From: a virus
Taxonomy: Duplodnaviria; Heunggongvirae; Uroviricota; Caudoviricetes
Strand: one strand, 5' to 3'
IMG/VR virus record: IMGVR_UViG_2541047758_000002
Span: 1 to 9,688 of that record
Length of the DNA: 9,688 nucleotides
Notes under the pieces: model-generated
Seen by the model: the letters and a program-made list of their open reading frames with translations, nothing else
What the model was told of the DNA's origin: nothing
The model's database searches: none
Translations under genes and position numbers: made by a program
Shown: in pieces, positions 1 through 9,688 of the stretch
Position numbering within the stretch: the first letter of the stretch is position 1
Layout: each line of letters opens with the position of its first letter

Positions 1-117
1 GAAGAAACCCGGAAAGACGGTAAGAAAATTGATTATCCGGCGCGTCCTCTGCTCGGCTTTACCGGTGAGGATGTGCAGATGATTGAAGAGATTATTCTGG
101 CGCACCTCGACCGTTAG
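1..117 (+). CDS. S: 3' end of tail completion protein (P2 gpS-like); partial, 5' end lies outside the window
   Basis: Frame 1 is open from position 1 to TAG at 115..117 (translation ...GFTGEDVQMIEEIILAHLDR*). It sits directly upstream of the V homolog, as S does in P2. Identity rests mainly on synteny. Confidence 0.55.
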   Translation, partial: EETRKDGKKIDYPARPLLGFTGEDVQMIEEIILAHLDR

Positions 118-136
118 TTGTGCCATTCCCGACACC
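118..136 (+). promoter_or_regulatory. Candidate late-promoter activator site (Ogr/Delta-type) upstream of V
   Basis: TTGTGCCATTCCCGACACC lies between the S stop and the V start, with TGT at 119..121 and ACA at 132..134 (ten intervening bases by my count). A related motif lies upstream of FI. P2 late promoters carry a TGT-N12-ACA dyad near -55. Confidence 0.3.
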
Positions 137-2076: not shown

Positions 2077-2680
2077 TTCGCGCCTGCTGCCGACCGGCTC
2101 ATCACCGCTTGAAGTTGCCGCCGCAAAAGCCTGTGCGGAAATTGAAAAAACGCCGGTCAGTATTCGTGAGCTGTGGAACCCGGACACCTGCCCGGCAAAT
2201 CTGCTGCCGTGGCTGGCGTGGTCATTTTCGGTCGACAGGTGGGATGATAAATGGCCGGAAGCGACCAAACGCGCTGTTATCCGCGATGCGTATTTCATTC
2301 ACTGCCATAAGGGCACTATTGGTGCGATTCGCCGTGTGGTGGAGCCGCTCGGCTATCTGATTGAGGTGAGGGAGTGGTGGCAGCTCAACGAGGAGCCGGG
2401 GACGTTCCGCATCGTTGTTGGCGTGCTTGAGCAGGGTATTACCGAGGAAATGTATCAGGAGCTGGAGCGTCTCGTTGCTGATGCAAAACCTGCAAGCCGC
2501 CATCTGACGGGACTGGCTATCAGTTTAAGTACAACCGGCAACATTTTTGCCGGTGCGGGATGCTATCACGGCGACGCCCTGACGGTTTATCCCTACACCC
2601 CGGAGGCCATTATTGTCGGAGGGGATTATTTCCCGGCCTCGGCCATTCATTTAATTGATAACCTGAGAGTAAACGCATGA
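2069..2680 (+). CDS. I: Baseplate/tail protein I (P2 gpI-like)
   Basis: 203-aa ORF whose ATG at 2069 overlaps the J stop (ATGAGTGA); synteny between J and the tail fibre gene. The start is uncertain because I recall P2 gpI as shorter, but no in-frame internal ATG lies near the expected position. Confidence 0.82.
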   Translation: MSDSRLLPTGSSPLEVAAAKACAEIEKTPVSIRELWNPDTCPANLLPWLAWSFSVDRWDDKWPEATKRAVIRDAYFIHCHKGTIGAIRRVVEPLGYLIEVREWWQLNEEPGTFRIVVGVLEQGITEEMYQELERLVADAKPASRHLTGLAISLSTTGNIFAGAGCYHGDALTVYPYTPEAIIVGGDYFPASAIHLIDNLRVNA

Positions 2681-3957
2681 CAGTGAAATACTACGCCATT
2701 CTGACTAATCAGGGCGCAGCACGGCTGGCTAACGCGACGATGCTCGGCAGTAAGCTGAATCTGACGCAAATGGCCGTTGGTGATGCGAATGGTGTCTTGC
2801 CGACACCAGACCCGGCACAGACAAAACTGATTAACCAGAAACGCATTGCACCGCTGAATCTTCTGAGTGTTGACCCGAATAACCAGAGCCAGATTATTGC
2901 GGAGCAAATCATCCCTGAGAACGAGGGCGGATTCTGGATCCGTGAGATTGGGCTTTATGATGATGAAGGCGTACTCATTGCGGTGGCGAACTGCCCGGAA
3001 ACGTACAAACCGCAGTTGCAGGAAGGCAGCGGTCGTACCCAGACTATCCGCATGATTCTGGTTGTCACGAATACCGAAGCTATCACGCTGAAAATCGACC
3101 CGTCGGTGGTACTGGCGACCCGTAAATACGTGGATGATGAAGTCCTGGAATTAAGGCTGTATGTGGATGACCAGATGAGAAACCATATTGCCGCACAGGA
3201 TCCTCATACCCAGTATGCACAGAAACATAATCCGACATTTACCGGAGAACCAAAAGCGCCGACGCCTGCTGCAGGAAATAACACCACGCGGATTGCGACC
3301 ACTGCGTTTGTTCAGGCGGTTATTACCGCTCTGATTAACGGTGCGCCTGCCACGCTGGATACACTGAAAGAAATTGCCGCAGCCATTAACAATGACCCGA
3401 AATTCAGCACCACCATTAACAATGCGCTGGCAGGTAAACAACCGCTGGACAATACGCTGACTAATTTGAGTGGAAAGGATGTAGCTGGTCTTCTCACATA
3501 CCTTGGAATAGGAGAAACGGGAAAATACGACATTCTGCCAGCATCAAGAGGAGGCACTGGAGCGTCAACTATAGCCGGAGCATTGATAAACTTTGGTCTG
3601 AGTGATTTAGTGACTGCCGGATTAGTACAGGTGGAATCTGGTACAGACTTTATTACTGCTAAGATTCCATTTCTGTCCGGTGGTAGAAAGCGATTCCTGA
3701 TGATACATGCCATCAAGGCGACAATGCCTGCAAATAATAACGGGTATAACCTTACTGTTACATTCCCAACTGCCTATGATAATGCACCGATACCAATTCT
3801 TGGCTCGACCGTAGGGTCGACTTCAACAACGGGTGGTACCACAGAGTCAATGAATATTTCATCAGTCACAAAATCGGGTTGCATCATTTCTTCAGCATGG
3901 CAAACATGGTCTGAGGGACCGGTATATCTTTTAACGATTGGAGGAGTTGCAGCATGA
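2677..3957 (+). CDS. H: Tail fibre protein (P2 gpH-like): constant N-terminal part to about 3503, variable C-terminal part 3505..3957 inside the invertible segment
   Basis: 426-aa ORF with start overlapping the I stop (ATGA). The N-terminus (MTVKYYAILTNQGAARLANA...) is the conserved fibre N-terminal domain shared by P2 H and Mu S-type fibres. The C-terminal third is AT-richer and begins at a hix/gix-like site. Confidence 0.9.
   Translation: MTVKYYAILTNQGAARLANATMLGSKLNLTQMAVGDANGVLPTPDPAQTKLINQKRIAPLNLLSVDPNNQSQIIAEQIIPENEGGFWIREIGLYDDEGVLIAVANCPETYKPQLQEGSGRTQTIRMILVVTNTEAITLKIDPSVVLATRKYVDDEVLELRLYVDDQMRNHIAAQDPHTQYAQKHNPTFTGEPKAPTPAAGNNTTRIATTAFVQAVITALINGAPATLDTLKEIAAAINNDPKFSTTINNALAGKQPLDNTLTNLSGKDVAGLLTYLGIGETGKYDILPASRGGTGASTIAGALINFGLSDLVTAGLVQVESGTDFITAKIPFLSGGRKRFLMIHAIKATMPANNNGYNLTVTFPTAYDNAPIPILGSTVGSTSTTGGTTESMNISSVTKSGCIISSAWQTWSEGPVYLLTIGGVAA
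3491..3516. repeat. Left crossover site of the invertible segment (hix/gix/cix-like 26-bp site), inside the H coding sequence
   Basis: TTCTCACATACC-TT-GGAATAGGAGAA. It matches the reverse complement of the right site (TTTTCTTAAACG-TT-GGTTTAGGAGAA) at 18 of 26 positions, 12 of 14 in the half that lies inside the segment. It has the 12-2-12 architecture of Hin-family recombination sites. Confidence 0.65.
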
Positions 3958-4340
3958 AATATTATTCACCTTCAATTAATGGATTTCCCGAACAAAAGAC
4001 TGATGACAGTATTGAGATCAGTGAAGAGGTCTGGAGAATACTTCTTAGTGAAATTTACTCAGGCCGGGAGTTATTTAACGATGGCGGCGTACCCGCTACC
4101 CGTGTGCCGCAACCTACGCAAGAACAAGTAATTGCAGCCGCAGAAAATGAGCGCCAACGATTGCTGAATTATGCTGATACCGTAATGCTCGACTGGCGTA
4201 CAGAATTGATGCTGGGTGAAATCAGCGACGCCAACAGGGCTAAATTGTCGGCGTGGCTGGCTTATAAAAATCAAGTTAAGTCGGTTGATGTGACAACTGA
4301 CCCTGAGCATGTTAACTGGCCTATTTCCCCGGAGGCGTAG
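3954..4340 (+). CDS. Tail fibre assembly chaperone (P2 gpG / Mu U / Tfa family) for the currently expressed fibre tip
   Basis: 128-aa ORF with start overlapping the H stop (ATGA). Sits immediately downstream of the fibre gene; the C-terminal region (...EHVNWPISPEA) resembles Tfa proteins. Confidence 0.8.
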   Translation: MKYYSPSINGFPEQKTDDSIEISEEVWRILLSEIYSGRELFNDGGVPATRVPQPTQEQVIAAAENERQRLLNYADTVMLDWRTELMLGEISDANRAKLSAWLAYKNQVKSVDVTTDPEHVNWPISPEA

Positions 4341-4752
4341 GCCATTCAATATCTGGCGCACCGGAAGTATCGACCAGTTCCAGTGCGTCCAGATAATCCA
4401 GCCACGAATTATATTGCGCCAGTTCCTCTCCTTTCAGACGACCAATCGCCGCTTTACCAGGCCATTGCTTACTGTTTATGTATTCGTTGACCTGATTAAT
4501 CAATTGCTGCTTTTCCAGTTCGGCTGCGGCAATTTGTTCCTCATGAGTTGGCGGTGGAATATCAATCCATGCTGGCATTCCGTCGATGACACCTCTGTAT
4601 TTTCCTTCTGGTGCTTCCTTCATAAATTCGGCGGCAACAGTGTCGTCAATTTCGATTCCATCATCGGGCCATTCGCCGGATTCCTGATAAGCGATTTTAA
4701 GCTCCACAGGGAAAAACGCATTTTTCTCGGCACTGAAAATATATTTCTGCAT
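4321..4752 (-). CDS. Alternative tail fibre assembly chaperone (Mu U'-like), partner of the silent fibre cassette
   Basis: 143-aa ORF on the - strand, starting 2 nt after the stop of the silent fibre cassette. The C-terminus (...DIEWPTPPGK) is Tfa-like. Its 3' end overlaps the + strand chaperone gene by 20 nt. Confidence 0.8.
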   Translation of the reverse strand: MQKYIFSAEKNAFFPVELKIAYQESGEWPDDGIEIDDTVAAEFMKEAPEGKYRGVIDGMPAWIDIPPPTHEEQIAAAELEKQQLINQVNEYINSKQWPGKAAIGRLKGEELAQYNSWLDYLDALELVDTSGAPDIEWPTPPGK

Positions 4753-4754
4753 TT

Positions 4755-5111
4755 CTACCGTCCTATCGAAATATAACTGAATCTGTATTGCTGTGAGATA
4801 TCACTGGTTGCCACACGCCACGCTGAATTACTGATATGTTCAAAATTTACAGACAAAACCTGCGGGGCAGGATTCGACGGGTCTGACTGAACGGCATCAG
4901 ACATAACACTGACTGAAACCATCGGCTGATTAGGGAATGGTATAGGGAAGTGTCCACTGATAAAGCGGGTCGTGTTTCCTGAAAAAGTGCCAAACTGAAC
5001 AATATATCCACCTGGTAGCCTGAACCATCCCGAACCAGAAGCGAATGCTCCCATATCAGGTATCTGATTATCTCCTGTGCCCACATCCCTTTTCGCCGCT
5101 TCTCCTAAACC
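4755..5111 (-). CDS. Silent alternative tail-fibre C-terminal cassette (Mu S'v-like); lacks its own start and would be expressed only after inversion fuses it to the constant part of H
   Basis: - strand reading frame open from the right crossover site to TAG at 4757..4755. Its first codons after the crossover core (GLGEAAK...) parallel the H codons after the left core (GIGETGK...). Frame arithmetic shows an in-frame fusion after inversion. Confidence 0.7.
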   Translation of the reverse strand, partial: GLGEAAKRDVGTGDNQIPDMGAFASGSGWFRLPGGYIVQFGTFSGNTTRFISGHFPIPFPNQPMVSVSVMSDAVQSDPSNPAPQVLSVNFEHISNSAWRVATSDISQQYRFSYISIGR

Positions 5112-5125
5112 AACGTTTAAGAAAA
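5100..5125. repeat. Right crossover site of the invertible segment (hix/gix/cix-like)
   Basis: TTCTCCTAAACC-AA-CGTTTAAGAAAA. Close to the Hin-family half-site consensus TTxTCxxAAACC with a 2-bp AA core, inverted relative to the left site (core TT on the + strand). Lies 55 bp upstream of the invertase start. Confidence 0.7.
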
Positions 5126-5180
5126 TGCAGAGGTAACAGCTAACTGGCATCATCCCCGGTTTTTATTCAGGGGGATAATC

Positions 5181-5774
5181 ATGCTTATTGGCTATGTACG
5201 CGTGTCAACAAATGACCAGAACACGGAATTGCAGCGTAACGCGCTGGAGTGTGCAGGATGTGAGCTGATTTTTGAGGATAAAATCAGCGGCACGAAGTCC
5301 GACAGGCCGGGACTGAAAAAACTGCTCAGAACATTATCAGCAGGTGACACTCTGGTGGTCTGGAAGCTGGACAGGCTGGGGCGTAGTATGCGGCATCTGG
5401 TCATTCTGGTTGAGGAACTGCGCGAACGCGGCGTTAATTTTCGCAGCCTGACGGATGCTATTGATACCAGCACGCCGATGGGGCGTTTTTTCTTTCATGT
5501 GATGGGTGCCCTGGCTGAAATGGAGCGAGAACTCATTGTCGAGCGGACACGCGCCGGACTGGAAGCGGCCAGAGCCAAAGGTCGTATTGGTGGCGGACGA
5601 CCGAAACTCACTGCGGGTGAGTGGGAGCAGGTCGGACGGTTGCTGGCTGCGGGGGAATCTCGTCAACGTGTGGCGCTGATTTTTGATATTGGTCTGTCCA
5701 CGCTCTATAAAAAATTCCCCTCATCAGCGACAAAGAATAAATTGTGTCATCCCTTAGCCAACCGGGACAAATAG
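5181..5774 (+). CDS. Site-specific serine DNA invertase (Hin/Gin/Cin/Pin family resolvase-invertase)
   Basis: 197-aa ORF; N-terminus MLIGYVRVSTNDQNTELQRNAL... carries the serine-recombinase catalytic motif (YVRVST) and the ...DRLGRS... region; C-terminal helix-turn-helix (...GLSTLYKKFP). Shine-Dalgarno GGGGGA lies 5 nt upstream. Adjacent to the invertible segment. Confidence 0.92.
   Translation: MLIGYVRVSTNDQNTELQRNALECAGCELIFEDKISGTKSDRPGLKKLLRTLSAGDTLVVWKLDRLGRSMRHLVILVEELRERGVNFRSLTDAIDTSTPMGRFFFHVMGALAEMERELIVERTRAGLEAARAKGRIGGGRPKLTAGEWEQVGRLLAAGESRQRVALIFDIGLSTLYKKFPSSATKNKLCHPLANRDK
5742..5763 (+). promoter_or_regulatory. Candidate late-promoter activator site upstream of FI, overlapping the 3' end of the invertase gene
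   Basis: TTGTGTCATCCCTTAGCCAACC about 90 nt upstream of the FI start; shares TTGTG-CAT-CC with the motif upstream of V. Confidence 0.3.
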
Positions 5775-5833
5775 CCTGACATCTCCGGCACAACTGAAAA
5801 TACCACTCACCCATTAACCACGGAGTTAAACGG

Positions 5834-7024
5834 ATGAGTGACTATCATCACGGCGTGCAGGTGCTGGAGATTAACGACGGCACCCGCGTCATTTCCACCG
5901 TATCCACTGCCATTGTTGGCATGGTCTGCACGGCCAGCGATGCGGATGCGGAAACCTTCCCCCTCAATAAACCGGTGCTGATTACCAATGTGCAGAGCGC
6001 AATTGCAAAGGCCGGTAAAAAAGGCACGCTGGCGGCATCGTTGCAGGCCATCGCCGACCAGTCAAAACCGGTCACCGTTGTCGTGCGTGTGGAAGACGGC
6101 ACCGGCGACGACGAGGAAACGAAACTCGCGCAGACCGTTTCCAATATCATCGGCACCACCGACGAAAACGGTCAGTACACCGGACTGAAAGCCCTGCTGG
6201 CGGCGGAGTCGGTAACCGGTGTTAAACCGCGTATTCTCGGCGTGCCGGGACTGGACACCAAAGAGGTGGCGGTTGCACTGGCATCAGTATGTCAGAAGCT
6301 GCGCGCTTTCGGGTATATCAGCGCATGGGGCTGTAAAACCATTTCCGAGGTGAAAGCCTACCGCCAGAATTTCAGCCAGCGTGAGCTGATGGTCATCTGG
6401 CCGGATTTCCTCGCATGGGATACGGTCACCAGTACCACCGCCACCGCGTATGCCACTGCCCGTGCACTGGGCCTGCGCGCTAAAATCGACCAGGAGCAGG
6501 GCTGGCATAAAACGCTGTCCAATGTCGGGGTGAACGGTGTTACCGGCATCAGCGCATCTGTATTCTGGGATTTGCAGGAGTCCGGCACCGATGCTGACCT
6601 GCTTAACGAGTCAGGCGTCACAACGCTGATTCGCCGTGACGGTTTCCGCTTCTGGGGTAACCGTACCTGTTCTGATGACCCGCTGTTCCTCTTTGAAAAC
6701 TACACCCGCACCGCGCAGGTGCTGGCCGATACGATGGCTGAGGCGCACATGTGGGCGGTGGACAAGCCCATCACCGCAACGCTGATTCGCGACATCGTTG
6801 ACGGCATCAATGCCAAATTCCGTGAGCTGAAAACAAACGGCTATATCGTGGATGCGACCTGCTGGTTCAGCGAAGAATCCAACGATGCGGAAACCCTTAA
6901 GGCCGGAAAACTGTATATCGACTACGACTATACCCCGGTGCCTCCTCTTGAAAACCTGACCCTGCGCCAGCGTATTACCGATAAATACCTGGCAAATCTG
7001 GTCACCTCGGTTAACAGCAATTAA
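5834..7024 (+). CDS. FI: Contractile tail sheath protein (P2 gpFI-like)
   Basis: 396-aa ORF, the same length as P2 FI; GGAG ribosome-binding site upstream; followed by the tube gene. Confidence 0.92.
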   Translation: MSDYHHGVQVLEINDGTRVISTVSTAIVGMVCTASDADAETFPLNKPVLITNVQSAIAKAGKKGTLAASLQAIADQSKPVTVVVRVEDGTGDDEETKLAQTVSNIIGTTDENGQYTGLKALLAAESVTGVKPRILGVPGLDTKEVAVALASVCQKLRAFGYISAWGCKTISEVKAYRQNFSQRELMVIWPDFLAWDTVTSTTATAYATARALGLRAKIDQEQGWHKTLSNVGVNGVTGISASVFWDLQESGTDADLLNESGVTTLIRRDGFRFWGNRTCSDDPLFLFENYTRTAQVLADTMAEAHMWAVDKPITATLIRDIVDGINAKFRELKTNGYIVDATCWFSEESNDAETLKAGKLYIDYDYTPVPPLENLTLRQRITDKYLANLVTSVNSN

Positions 7025-7036
7025 GGAGCCTGACCG

Positions 7037-7555
7037 ATGGCAATGCCGCGCAAACTCAAGTTAATGAACGTCTTTCTGAACGGCTACAGCTATCAGGGCG
7101 TTGCAAAGTCCGTCACGCTGCCAAAACTGACCCGTAAGCTCGAAAACTATCGCGGTGCGGGGATGAACGGCAGCGCACCGGTAGACCTCGGCCTTGATGA
7201 CGATGCGCTGTCAATGGAGTGGTCGCTCGGGGGCTTCCCGGATTCGGTTATCTGGGAGCTTTACGCCGCAACCGGTGTGGATGCCGTGCCGATTCGTTTT
7301 GCAGGCTCTTACCAGCGCGACGATACCGGCGAAACGGTGGCCGTCGAAGTGGTCATGCGTGGGCGTCAGAAAGAAGTCGACACCGGCGAGGGTAAACAGG
7401 GAGAAGATACCGAGTCGAAAATCTCCGTGGTCTGCACCTATTTCCGGCTGACGATGGACGGTAAGGGGCTGGTCGAAATTGACACCATCAACATGATTGA
7501 GAAGGTGAACGGCGTCGACCGGCTGGAGCAACACCGCCGCAATATCGGCCTGTGA
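7037..7555 (+). CDS. FII: Tail tube protein (P2 gpFII-like)
   Basis: 172-aa ORF, the same length as P2 FII; strong AGGAG ribosome-binding site at about 7024..7028; synteny after the sheath gene. Confidence 0.92.
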   Translation: MAMPRKLKLMNVFLNGYSYQGVAKSVTLPKLTRKLENYRGAGMNGSAPVDLGLDDDALSMEWSLGGFPDSVIWELYAATGVDAVPIRFAGSYQRDDTGETVAVEVVMRGRQKEVDTGEGKQGEDTESKISVVCTYFRLTMDGKGLVEIDTINMIEKVNGVDRLEQHRRNIGL

Positions 7556-7562
7556 TTTTCAT

Positions 7563-7583
7563 CCGGTCAGCCAGGCTGACCGG
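7563..7583 (+). other. Perfect 9-bp stem / 3-nt loop hairpin in the FII-E intergenic region
   Basis: CCGGTCAGC-cag-GCTGACCGG, 8 nt after the FII stop; followed only by TT. Confidence 0.3.
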
Positions 7584-7611
7584 TTAACCCCGATTCAGAA
7601 GTGAGAAAACC

Positions 7612-7887
7612 ATGAACAAAGAAAATGTCATTACCCTGGACAATCCGGTCAAACGTGGTGAGCAGGTTATCGAACAGGTCACGCTGATGAAACCCAATGC
7701 CGGGACGCTGCGCGGTGTCAGTCTGGCTGCGGTTGCAAACTCCGAAGTCGATGCACTGATTAAGGTGCTGCCGCGCATGACGGCACCGATGCTGACCGAG
7801 CAGGAAGTCGCCGCGCTGGAACTGCCTGACCTTGTGGCGCTGGCCGGTAAGGTGGTCGGTTTTTTGTCGCCGAACTCGGTGCAGTGA
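7612..7887 (+). CDS. E: Tail assembly chaperone E (P2 gpE-like), zero-frame product
   Basis: 91-aa ORF, the same length as P2 gpE, between the tube and tape measure genes; contains the TTTTTTG slippery site near its 3' end. Confidence 0.88.
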   Translation: MNKENVITLDNPVKRGEQVIEQVTLMKPNAGTLRGVSLAAVANSEVDALIKVLPRMTAPMLTEQEVAALELPDLVALAGKVVGFLSPNSVQ

Positions 7888-8039
7888 CGTTTCCAAAAAA
7901 TCTCTCGGTCGATGACCTGATGGCGGATGTGGCAGTGATATTTCACTGGCCGCCATCAGAACTGTATCCCATGAGCCTGACCGAACTCAACACATGGCGC
8001 GAAAAGGCGCTCCGGCGAAGCGGAAACACGAATGAGTAA
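7612..8039 (+). CDS. E: Tail assembly chaperone E+E' made by programmed -1 ribosomal frameshift at 7860..7866
   Basis: The -1 frame downstream of the slippery heptamer is open to TAA at 8037..8039 (...VTFPKNLSVDDLMADVAVIFHWPPSELYPMSLTELNTWREKALRRSGNTNE*). The fusion would be about 142 aa, matching P2 gpE+E'. Confidence 0.75.
7860..7866 (+). promoter_or_regulatory. Slippery heptamer T-TTT-TTG for the -1 frameshift producing E+E'
   Basis: Sequence ttttttg read directly; same heptamer class as used by P2 E/E' and lambda G/GT. Confidence 0.7.
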
Positions 8040-9688
8040 CAATGTAAAATTACAGGTATTGCTCAGGGCTGTTGACCAGGCATCCCGCCCGTTTAAATCC
8101 ATCCGCACAGCGAGTAAGTCGCTGTCGGGGGATATCCGGGAAACACAAAAATCACTGCGCGAGCTGAACGGTCACGCATCCCGTATTGAGGGATTTCGCA
8201 AGACCAGTGCACAGCTCGCCGTGACTGGTCATGCACTTGAAAAGGCACGGCAGGAGGCCGAAGCCCTTGCCACACAGTTTAAAAATACCGAACGACCGAC
8301 CCGTGCTCAGGCGAAAGTGCTGGAATCCGCAAAGCGTGCGGTGGAGGACTTACAGGCGAAATATAACCGCCTGACGGATTCCGTTAAACGCCAGCAGCGG
8401 GAACTGGCCGCTGTGGGAATTAATACCCGCAATCTTGCACATGATGAGCAGGGACTGAAAAAACGTATCAGTGAAACCACCGCACAACTTAACCGTCAGC
8501 GCGACGCGCTGGCGCGTGTCAGTGCGCAACAGGCAAAACTTAACGCAGTAAAACAGCGTTATCAGGCCGGAAAGGAACTGGCCGGAAATATGGCCTCAGT
8601 AGGCGCTGCCGGTGTGGGGATTGCGGCGGCGGGAACGATGGCCGGAGTTAAGTTACTGATGCCCGGTTATGAGTTTGCGCAGAAAAACTCAGAATTGCAG
8701 GCCGTGCTCGGAGTGGCAAAAGACTCCGCCGAAATGACCGCACTACGCAAGCAGGCGCGCCAGCTTGGCGACAACACCGCCGCCTCGGCGGATGATGCAG
8801 CCGGTGCGCAGATTATCATTGCGAAAGCCGGCGGGGATGTTGATGCCATTCAGGCGGCAACGCCGGTCACGCTGAATATGGCGCTGGCGAACCGTCGCAC
8901 GATGGAAGAAAACGCCGCCCTGTTGATGGGGATGAAATCCGCCTTTCAGCTTTCAAACGATAAGGTCGCTCATATCGGGGATGTTCTCTCCATGACGATG
9001 AACAAAACCGCCGCCGATTTTGACGGCATGAGCGATGCGCTGACCTATGCCGCACCTGTGGCAAAAAATGCCGGTGTCAGCATTGAAGAAACCGCCGCAA
9101 TGGTCGGGGCGCTGCATGATGCAAAAATTACCGGTTCAATGGCGGGGACGGGAAGCCGTGCCGTGTTAAGCCGTCTGCAGGCACCGACGGGAAAAGCATG
9201 GGATGCACTGAAAGAGCTTGGTGTGAAAACCTCAGACAGCAAGGGAAACACCCGGCCAATATTTACCATTCTGAAAGAAATGCAGGCCAGTTTTGAGAAA
9301 AACCGGCTCGGTACTGCCCAGCAGGCTGAATACATGAAAACTATTTTCGGGGAGGAGGCCAGCTCAGCCGCCGCCGTGCTGATGACTGCCGCCTCAACCG
9401 GAAAGCTGGACAAACTGACCGCTGCGTTTAAAGCCTCGGACGGGAAGACCGCCGAGCTGGTAAATATCATGCAGGACAACCTCGGCGGTGACTTTAAAGA
9501 GTTTCAGTCCGCTTATGAGGCGGTGGGGACTGACCTGTTTGACCAGCAGGAAGGCGCACTGCGTAATCTCACACAGACGGCCACAAAGTATGTGTTAAAA
9601 CTCGATGGCTGGATCCAGAAAAACAAATCACTGGCGTCAACCATCGGCCTCATTGCCGGTGGCGCACTGGCGCTTACTGGCATCATCG
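8032..9688 (+). CDS. T: Tail tape measure protein (P2 gpT-like), N-terminal 552 codons; continues past the window end
   Basis: ATG at 8032 inside the E' stop (AATGAGTAA). The frame stays open to the window end (MSNNVKLQVLLRAVDQASRPFK...). Coiled-coil-like, Ala/Gln-rich composition typical of tape measure proteins; synteny after E/E'. Confidence 0.9.
   Translation, partial: MSNNVKLQVLLRAVDQASRPFKSIRTASKSLSGDIRETQKSLRELNGHASRIEGFRKTSAQLAVTGHALEKARQEAEALATQFKNTERPTRAQAKVLESAKRAVEDLQAKYNRLTDSVKRQQRELAAVGINTRNLAHDEQGLKKRISETTAQLNRQRDALARVSAQQAKLNAVKQRYQAGKELAGNMASVGAAGVGIAAAGTMAGVKLLMPGYEFAQKNSELQAVLGVAKDSAEMTALRKQARQLGDNTAASADDAAGAQIIIAKAGGDVDAIQAATPVTLNMALANRRTMEENAALLMGMKSAFQLSNDKVAHIGDVLSMTMNKTAADFDGMSDALTYAAPVAKNAGVSIEETAAMVGALHDAKITGSMAGTGSRAVLSRLQAPTGKAWDALKELGVKTSDSKGNTRPIFTILKEMQASFEKNRLGTAQQAEYMKTIFGEEASSAAAVLMTAASTGKLDKLTAAFKASDGKTAELVNIMQDNLGGDFKEFQSAYEAVGTDLFDQQEGALRNLTQTATKYVLKLDGWIQKNKSLASTIGLIAGGALALTGII

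Follow-up and report, generated by a model that had tools for sequence, protein, structure and literature searches.

The closest described counterparts of the locus analysed here are the Gin/G segment of Mu, the Cin/C segment of P1 and the Pin/P segment of e14, in each of which a small serine invertase is encoded just outside an invertible segment, the segment swaps tail-fibre C-termini together with their chaperones, and the crossover sites are 26-bp quasi-palindromes with matching central dinucleotides. Inversion has also been demonstrated by sequencing in P2-like prophages of EPEC E2348/69, according to the available text of that report (PMC4272514), and the Z/fun hotspot of P2-like phages often encodes a DNA invertase with inverted adjacent genes, as set out in the accessible part of a recent preprint (Egorov & Atkinson, bioRxiv 10.1101/2024.10.15.618418). 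The gene order of the present locus, namely fibre, chaperone, inverted cassette, invertase and the tail sheath gene FI, is also found in the Elveevirus phages Cartapus and KP12. Their invertases, whose N-terminal part has 86-87% DNA identity to the one described below, are 188 aa long and terminate at their own stop codon 142 nt before FI, with a TGT-N12-ACA element lying in the intergenic spacer. P2 late promoters have the consensus TGT-N12-ACA, centred near -55, and are activated by Ogr/Delta (cited in PMC3931495).

The window, by which we mean the whole 9,688-nt stretch of DNA analysed, appears to be the tail region of a P2-type (Peduovirus) prophage. Within it lies a module that resembles the Mu, P1 and e14 systems in all of the respects listed above, but that differs from them in its placement within a P2-type tail cluster and in its invertase gene, which has no stop codon of its own and continues for 10 codons into the next, predicted promoter. 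We consider it very likely that a Gin-type inversion module resides here in a P2-type prophage and that the tail of its invertase is translated DNA of the pF late promoter. From a list of open reading frames and a Pfam scan of the window, the genes are arranged as follows:

1-117, 3' end of S (stop codon at 115-117)
184-819, V
816-1163, W
1168-2076, J
2069-2680, I
2677-3957, fibre gene H, with a Phage_tail_fib N-terminus
3954-4340, plus strand (opposite to the cassette at 4321-5153), fibre-assembly gene encoding a chaperone (Caudo_TAP)
4321-4752, minus strand, alternative chaperone, a second Caudo_TAP gene (Pfam)
4755-5153, minus strand, alternative fibre tip, Gp53-like_C (Pfam), lacking an N-terminus of its own
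5181-5774, plus strand, Gin/Hin-family serine DNA invertase of 197 aa, outside the invertible segment
5834-7024, plus strand, FI tail sheath (Phage_sheath_1, Phage_sheath_1C, Gp18_domIII_N)
7037-7555, FII tube
3' of FII, E/E'/T

Alignment with P2 (AF063097; blastn) gave 94-98% identity over window positions 1-119, 184-2505 and 5754-9688, the last of these stretches being 97.6% identical, and just a single weak 154-nt match between 2505 and 5754. Because P2 homology breaks at these points, the block at 2506-5753 is taken to have replaced the 3' end of I together with H, G and fun(Z) of P2. Variable DNA with conserved flanks is thereby found between the fibre-assembly gene and the pF/FI boundary, as in the Z/fun hotspot, and this is the same hotspot whose cargo is treated in the accessible part of the preprint of Egorov & Atkinson. 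The first-pass annotation had placed an invertase at the Z/fun position; the location is right, but the position holds more than an invertase, since the second half of the inversion module (alternative tip, alternative chaperone and invertase) is there.

The identity of the invertase is well defined. Pfam Resolvase (PF00239) matches residues 3-135 with an E value of 2.9e-52 and HTH_7 (PF02796) matches residues 139-181 with an E value of 4e-11; at the level of NCBIfam, no specific Gin/Hin model scored above its cut-off. Residues 1-182 align to Mu Gin (PDB 3UJ3, E 1.5e-92; also 4M6F), and the catalytic Ser9 in YVRVSTNDQ aligns with Ser9 of Gin, a position that is Ala in the crystallised 3UJ3 variant and Ser in 4M6F. 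The C-terminal helix-turn-helix DNA-binding domain is preceded by a G-R minor-groove arm, which at residues 137-140 (5589-5600) reads GGGRPK here, GGRRPK in the closest relatives and GGRPPK in Gin. The protein ends in ...SSATKNKLCHPLANRDK, directly followed by the stop codon. A scan for sigma-70 promoters returned no convincing promoter for the gene, and a terminator scan of window positions 4340-5834 returned no convincing intrinsic terminator after either the fibre-assembly gene or the invertase. The transcription units are accordingly ones that we infer, and the F operon may receive some read-through, given that no terminator separates the invertase from FI.

The module itself is delimited by a pair of crossover sites:

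3491-3516, left crossover site, gix/hix-like, 26 bp, inside H, reading TTCTCACATACC-TT-GGAATAGGAGAA, found by aligning it locally with the right site in reverse complement
5100-5125, right crossover site, 26 bp, reading TTCTCCTAAACC-AA-CGTTTAAGAAAA, located by local alignment and a degenerate pattern
3504-5112, putative invertible segment of about 1.6 kb between the crossover sites
inside the segment, current arrangement: C-terminus of H (to 3957) and the chaperone (3954-4340)
inside the segment, other strand: alternative chaperone (4321-4752) and alternative fibre tip (4755-5111)

These sites are so degenerate that a repeat search (seed 9) missed them. They were recovered by local alignment and with a degenerate gix-like pattern, and the only two matches to the pattern in the window are the two crossover sites (chance expectation 0.00). 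As the sites lie in inverted orientation, the central dinucleotide TT on the left corresponds to AA on the right, which is TT when inverted. When inversion is simulated, the constant H region is joined in frame to the minus-strand alternative tip, and this flipped H junction occurs in 38 of the complete E. coli genomes, with identities of up to 97.8%. The junction that the window itself carries in H (3354-3654) is rare, with matches in just 2 complete E. coli genomes, at 92% identity. The finding of the flipped junction in 38 genomes versus the window's own orientation in two suggests that fibre cassettes have been shuffled between prophages. Both orientations of the same prophage were not found among the complete E. 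coli genomes searched by junction; the segment is predicted to invert in this host.

Where the invertase family ends and the remainder of the reading frame begins can be fixed closely, and the 3' part of the gene divides as follows:

5181-5720, plus strand, family-conserved part of the invertase, residues 1-180 (through ...STLYKKFP)
5721-5741, plus strand, hypervariable linker, residues 181-187 (SSATKNK)
5742-5774, plus strand, putative promoter-encoded tail, codons 188-197 (LCHPLANRDK) and the TAG stop, extending from the left half-site TTGT of pF to the conserved AAATAG

The alignment with canonical invertases that the first-pass annotation had proposed bears out this division. The alignment with Mu Gin stops at residue 182, after which Gin has an unrelated 11-residue tail, and the Hin 52-mer (1HCR) aligns to residues 139-188 (...STLYKKFPSSATKNKL versus ...STLYRYFPASSIKKRM) and finishes one residue past its last aligned position. 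In a 31-sequence family alignment, F179 and P180 are the last invariant columns and no consensus exists beyond them, and most of 120 close homologues end at 182-190 aa with tails that are unrelated after FPA. In an AF2 model the last helix ends at residue 178, and residues 184-197 have pLDDT values below 50 and no predicted secondary structure, although this is weak evidence because the model as a whole is moderate (mean pLDDT 68). Residues 181-187 probably form the C-terminus that the invertase naturally has, the counterpart of ASSIKKR in Hin, and this linker varies from lineage to lineage in both its sequence and its length (SSATKNK, AQAGVEKS, ASNSDPL and AHVGAEKS). We considered, and set aside as speculation, the idea that an out-of-frame TAA at 5738-5740 is the ancestral invertase stop codon displaced by a 1-nt indel. 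It was based on a tail-less Salmonella relative (P0005) that ends ...ACA AAA TCA TAA, and the diverged lineages have no such TAA.

Beyond the linker, the DNA is that of the pF promoter. In a sensitive DNA search with positions 5690-5900 as query, P2 homology begins at 5754 and homology to Peduovirus sequences of the L-413C type at 5742. Identity to P2 is 98.6% from 5754 through the FI start region (to 5900), a stretch that takes in the right half of the activator site, the -10 element and the start, and the same figure holds for 5754-5833, the region upstream of FI whose comparison with P2 had been suggested beforehand. Two features annotated in the P2 GenBank record can be transferred to the window, 'activator binding site; activation of pF promoter' (P2 17555-17583) and 'transcription start site for F operon' (P2 17626-17628), and a second late-promoter-like site lies upstream of V:

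5737-5765, plus strand, predicted binding site for an Ogr-type activator at pF, placed by transfer of the annotation of P2 in GenBank
5808-5810, plus strand, predicted start point of F-operon transcription (FI, FII, E, E', T...), the P2 feature falling on an identical CAC, 24 nt before the FI ATG
118-136, plus strand, pV-like late-promoter site (TTGTGCCATTCCCGACACC), directly after the S stop at 115-117 and about 55-57 nt upstream of the V start

The activator site (ATAAATTGTGTCATCCCTTAGCCAACCGG in the window, GGTGGTTGTGCTGTCGATTAGCCAACCGG in P2) is identical at 19 of 29 bases, and the differences are confined to the left flank and the spacer, leaving TTGT, CCAAC and the distance between them unchanged. 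The half-sites, TGT at 5743-5745 and CCA at 5758-5760 with a 12-nt spacer, form the same imperfect dyad as in P2, centred about 58 nt from the mapped start, and the distances to the start site and to FI are likewise those of P2. The window's site differs from that of P2 in its left flank and in five spacer bases, its spacer being of the L-413C type (TCATCC), and it also lies within coding sequence rather than behind a terminator or non-coding DNA. At base 5741, immediately before TTGT, the window's E. coli lineage has A in place of an otherwise invariant G, the base found in 18 invertase-free and 4 diverged invertase-bearing sequences, and this change may weaken the left half-site. The pF promoter requires sequence to about -69, a detail on which none of our arguments rests.

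Read in frame, 5742-5774 is TTG TGT CAT CCC TTA GCC AAC CGG GAC AAA TAG, and the stop codon falls at about -37 to -35 relative to the pF start and 59 nt before FI (5834). The first-pass annotation was accurate in that the invertase reaches to within 60 bp of the FI start and that its last 10 or so codons overlap a motif like the one upstream of V. Its interpretation of the tail as read-through into late-promoter DNA is supported, since both of the checks it proposed came out in favour and 5742-5774 is P2-type pF DNA. The shared motif, TTGTGNCATNCC (TTGTG.CAT.CC), has exactly two copies in the window, at 5742-5753 and 118-129, with a chance expectation of 0.04 for a pattern defined post hoc from both copies. 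The upstream copy (TTGTGCCATTCC, 118-129) abuts the S stop codon, and because the O-operon terminator and orf30 of P2 are absent, the S-V spacer is just 66 nt long, a compact form that is common among Peduovirus records.

Of 5426 complete E. coli genomes, 581 carry the complete junction, comprising the invertase 3' end, pF and the FI start, O157:H7 EC4115 being one of them; E. coli UTAK-18 matches 5600-5900 at 100%, and phage pro483 also has the junction. Other genomes show homology only from 5742 or 5754 onwards, breakpoints that lie at the activator site or within it. An in-frame overlap of the same kind is seen in prophages of Atlantibacter (L004), Pluralibacter (L006, listed as 'Enterobacter lignolyticus') and Citrobacter (L008) and in a metagenome contig (L011), all four of which have the order fibre, chaperone, inverted cassette, invertase, 58 nt and FI. 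The invertase cores of the three named genera are 83-84% identical to the window's, with stop-to-FI spacers of 58-59 nt, and invertases that are 78-80% identical overall share the ending LC....N.DK before the stop codon, with the overlap in an identical reading frame in every lineage seen. Among these lineages, no natural allele with a stop codon just before TTGT was found, and together with the constant frame this leaves a small probability for a role of the tail at the protein level. A more distant prophage (L010, P0047) was evaluated as a further case of overlap at 634-888 and left out of the comparison; its site is rearranged (collapsed; CTGTGCC-CACAAATAGCC), its invertase continues beyond the TAG in a different frame (...LCPQIAPDG, then a stop codon), and a different 190-nt region precedes FI.

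One alternative is that the ending is a selected, functional peptide, for example an extension of the invertase that contacts DNA or the Fis enhancer or serves as a stability signal, with which the promoter was forced to coexist. In support, the pattern L-C-x3-(A/T)-N-x-D-K, its stop codon and its reading frame are kept in at least four genera, the decapeptide is nearly invariant within the E. coli lineage, including IMG/VR sequences, and the C-terminal residues of Hin touch DNA in the Hin-hix structure. Against such a role stands the fact that the identical bases are conserved where there is no reading frame at all. A scan for the conserved ribosome-binding and start sequence of FI, with each species represented by a single genome, identified 17 further P2-like prophages, all 17 of them without an invertase and most with a terminator hairpin upstream of the activator site and no reading frame entering it; P2 similarly has a strong hairpin just upstream of its pF activator site. 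One of the 17, from Escherichia sp. MOD1-EC7003 (L032, 126-149 and upstream), has a pF without the left half-site TTGT (...GCGCTTACAGCCAACCGGGACAAATAG), near a contig end, the break falling at the same point as the breakpoint between P2 and the window at 5754. With that sequence removed and P2 and L-413C added, 18 invertase-free, non-coding pF regions yield the consensus GTTGT..CA........CCAAC...GA.AAATAGC, and the invertase-bearing set yields TTGTG.CA..C....ACCAACC..GACAAATAGCC. Conserved columns coincide between the two sets, and in each the stretch from AAATAG to the -10 element drifts.

Within the four diverged prophages, the tail DNA takes the form TTGTG(Y).........(R)CCAAC...GAYAAATAG, such that the conserved codons are TTG TGY, RCC AAC and GAY AAA TAG. 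Across the five lineages there is no variation in TTG (Leu), AAC (Asn), AAA (Lys) or TAG. Conserved codons are fixed at their third positions, and the residues between them change radically (H/K/Q, P/T/S, L/Q/P and R/P/S at residues 190-192 and 195). In the invertase core, an identical codon is kept in just 24 of 131 columns with invariant residues. As a statistic, 3 of 5 conserved-residue codons invariant versus 18% in the core gives a p value of roughly 0.05 in a small test in which three of the five lineages are close relatives, and with so small a sample of related lineages the result on its own is no more than suggestive; the match to the non-coding promoters is the stronger argument. The decapeptide is in addition absent from the canonical active invertases Gin and Hin and from most relatives, and is predicted by AF2 to be disordered. 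The conservation of these bases in non-coding pF regions, together with the radical change of the residues between them, therefore points to constraint on the promoter and not on the peptide, and a selected functional extension seems improbable to us. The suggestion in the first-pass annotation that the tail is not conserved protein sequence needs amending: several genera do share a conserved tail (LC....N.DK), in a pattern that fits constraint on the promoter rather than on the protein.

Two further accounts concern the state of the promoter and of the overlap. One holds that pF is a decaying relic, the F operon being transcribed mainly by read-through from pV or from an invertase promoter, with the overlap simply tolerated. 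The lack of a terminator-like structure between the fibre genes or invertase and FI fits this account, as does the replacement, in the window's lineage, of the otherwise invariant G in front of TTGT by A. Decay is difficult to reconcile, however, with the retention of TTGT, CCAAC, GAYAAATAG, the -10 element and the start region in diverged invertase-bearing lineages in which the intervening DNA has drifted, with the near identity of 5754-5833 to the functional pF of P2, or with the near invariance of the region within the E. coli lineage next to a linker that is polymorphic there (SSATKNK, SSAAKNK, SSAIKNK, ASVTKNK, VSTTKNK and SSAAENK), and we judge it very improbable. The alternative of a regulatory overlap, in which activator and polymerase bound at pF in late infection block elongation through the invertase gene and so freeze fibre orientation, or in which invertase transcription occludes pF in the lysogen, could draw on the tightness of the overlap, its evolutionary stability in two promoter types and the lack of a terminator between invertase and FI; the Elveevirus phages, however, have the module with invertase and FI in this order, 142 nt apart and without any overlap, so the module can work without it, and there is in our estimate hardly any chance that this account is correct. 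Returning to the reading in which the tail is translated promoter DNA, we consider that pF is probably a working promoter, given that diverged lineages with an invertase have kept its elements despite drift in the flanking DNA. The earlier description of the region as an ancestral late promoter holds as regards its pF origin, but the promoter is probably more than ancestral. The window contains no ogr gene, and by analogy with P2 we expect pF to be active here and dependent on an Ogr-type activator. A phage of E. coli O157:H43 T22 (KC618326, L035) carries a 4-nt deletion that frameshifts the invertase (164 aa, with loss of the helix-turn-helix) and leaves pF intact; it appears to be a naturally occurring variant with a dead invertase, in which the fibres would be expected to stay in one orientation.

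Prophages of Enterobacter (L013, about 3059-3076 and 3880-3900; L099-L105) provide a second, independent promoter type that behaves like the window's. In these prophages an N6/N4 methyltransferase gene lies between the invertase and FI. The invertase tail LSERSDTPV, ending in a stop codon, runs through a perfect TGT-N12-ACA dyad (TGTCTGAACGCTCAGACA) before the methyltransferase gene, and the methyltransferase reading frame ends ...TTG TGT GAT TAA inside a second TGT-N12-ACA before FI. Two different Enterobacter invertase 3' ends (...FPASAVAP and ...FPASGLTE) join identical DNA at TTGT, beginning TTGTCTGAACGCTCAGACA.

Together, these observations can be accommodated in a simple scheme. A Gin-type inversion module, consisting of two 26-bp crossover sites, two cassettes each of fibre tip plus chaperone, and an invertase just outside the segment, would have replaced the H/G/fun(Z) block of P2, with its right recombination junction placed exactly at the left edge of the activator (Ogr-type) site of pF, the promoter predicted to drive FI-FII-E-T. 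As no stop codon lies between the natural end of the invertase, at about residue 187, and the junction, the reading frame continues through the activator site, which is read as TTG TGT (Leu-Cys) ... RCC AAC (Ala/Thr-Asn), and its stop is the TAG that belongs to the conserved promoter element GACAAATAG, near -35 of pF. The partial conservation of LCHPLANRDK across genera would then reflect selection on the promoter. Most likely, the invertase works without needing the tail and pF works as in P2, in which case the decapeptide would be a neutral appendage. The conserved promoter elements may in turn act as a fixed right-hand boundary for the exchange of hotspot cargo. More speculatively, and in our view doubtfully, the left edge of the activator site may be a hard, recurrent hotspot boundary at which rightward cargo, including invertases of at least two promoter types and the methyltransferase, routinely loses its stop codons and acquires promoter-encoded caps, and the overlap might couple invertase expression to occupancy of the late promoter, with activator and polymerase at pF forming a roadblock that ends fibre switching when late transcription begins.

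The overlap is an ordinary by-product of phage mosaicism. Invertases in the Z/fun hotspot have already been described, and neither the accessible part of 10.1101/2024.10.15.618418 nor the available text of PMC4272514 mentions an invertase reading frame that ends inside the pF activator site, so that with respect to these texts the coding/promoter overlap appears to be a small new detail. It leaves the understanding of invertases and of P2 late transcription unchanged, and its practical value lies mainly in annotation and in the interpretation of conservation: a C-terminal extension that is seemingly conserved across genera can echo a regulatory DNA element and not a feature of the protein. For the P2-like phages, the boundary of the hotspot can be assigned with single-base precision to the first T of the activator-site TTGT, which helps when fibre or defence cargo is to be built into P2-like phages and tailocins with pF left undamaged.
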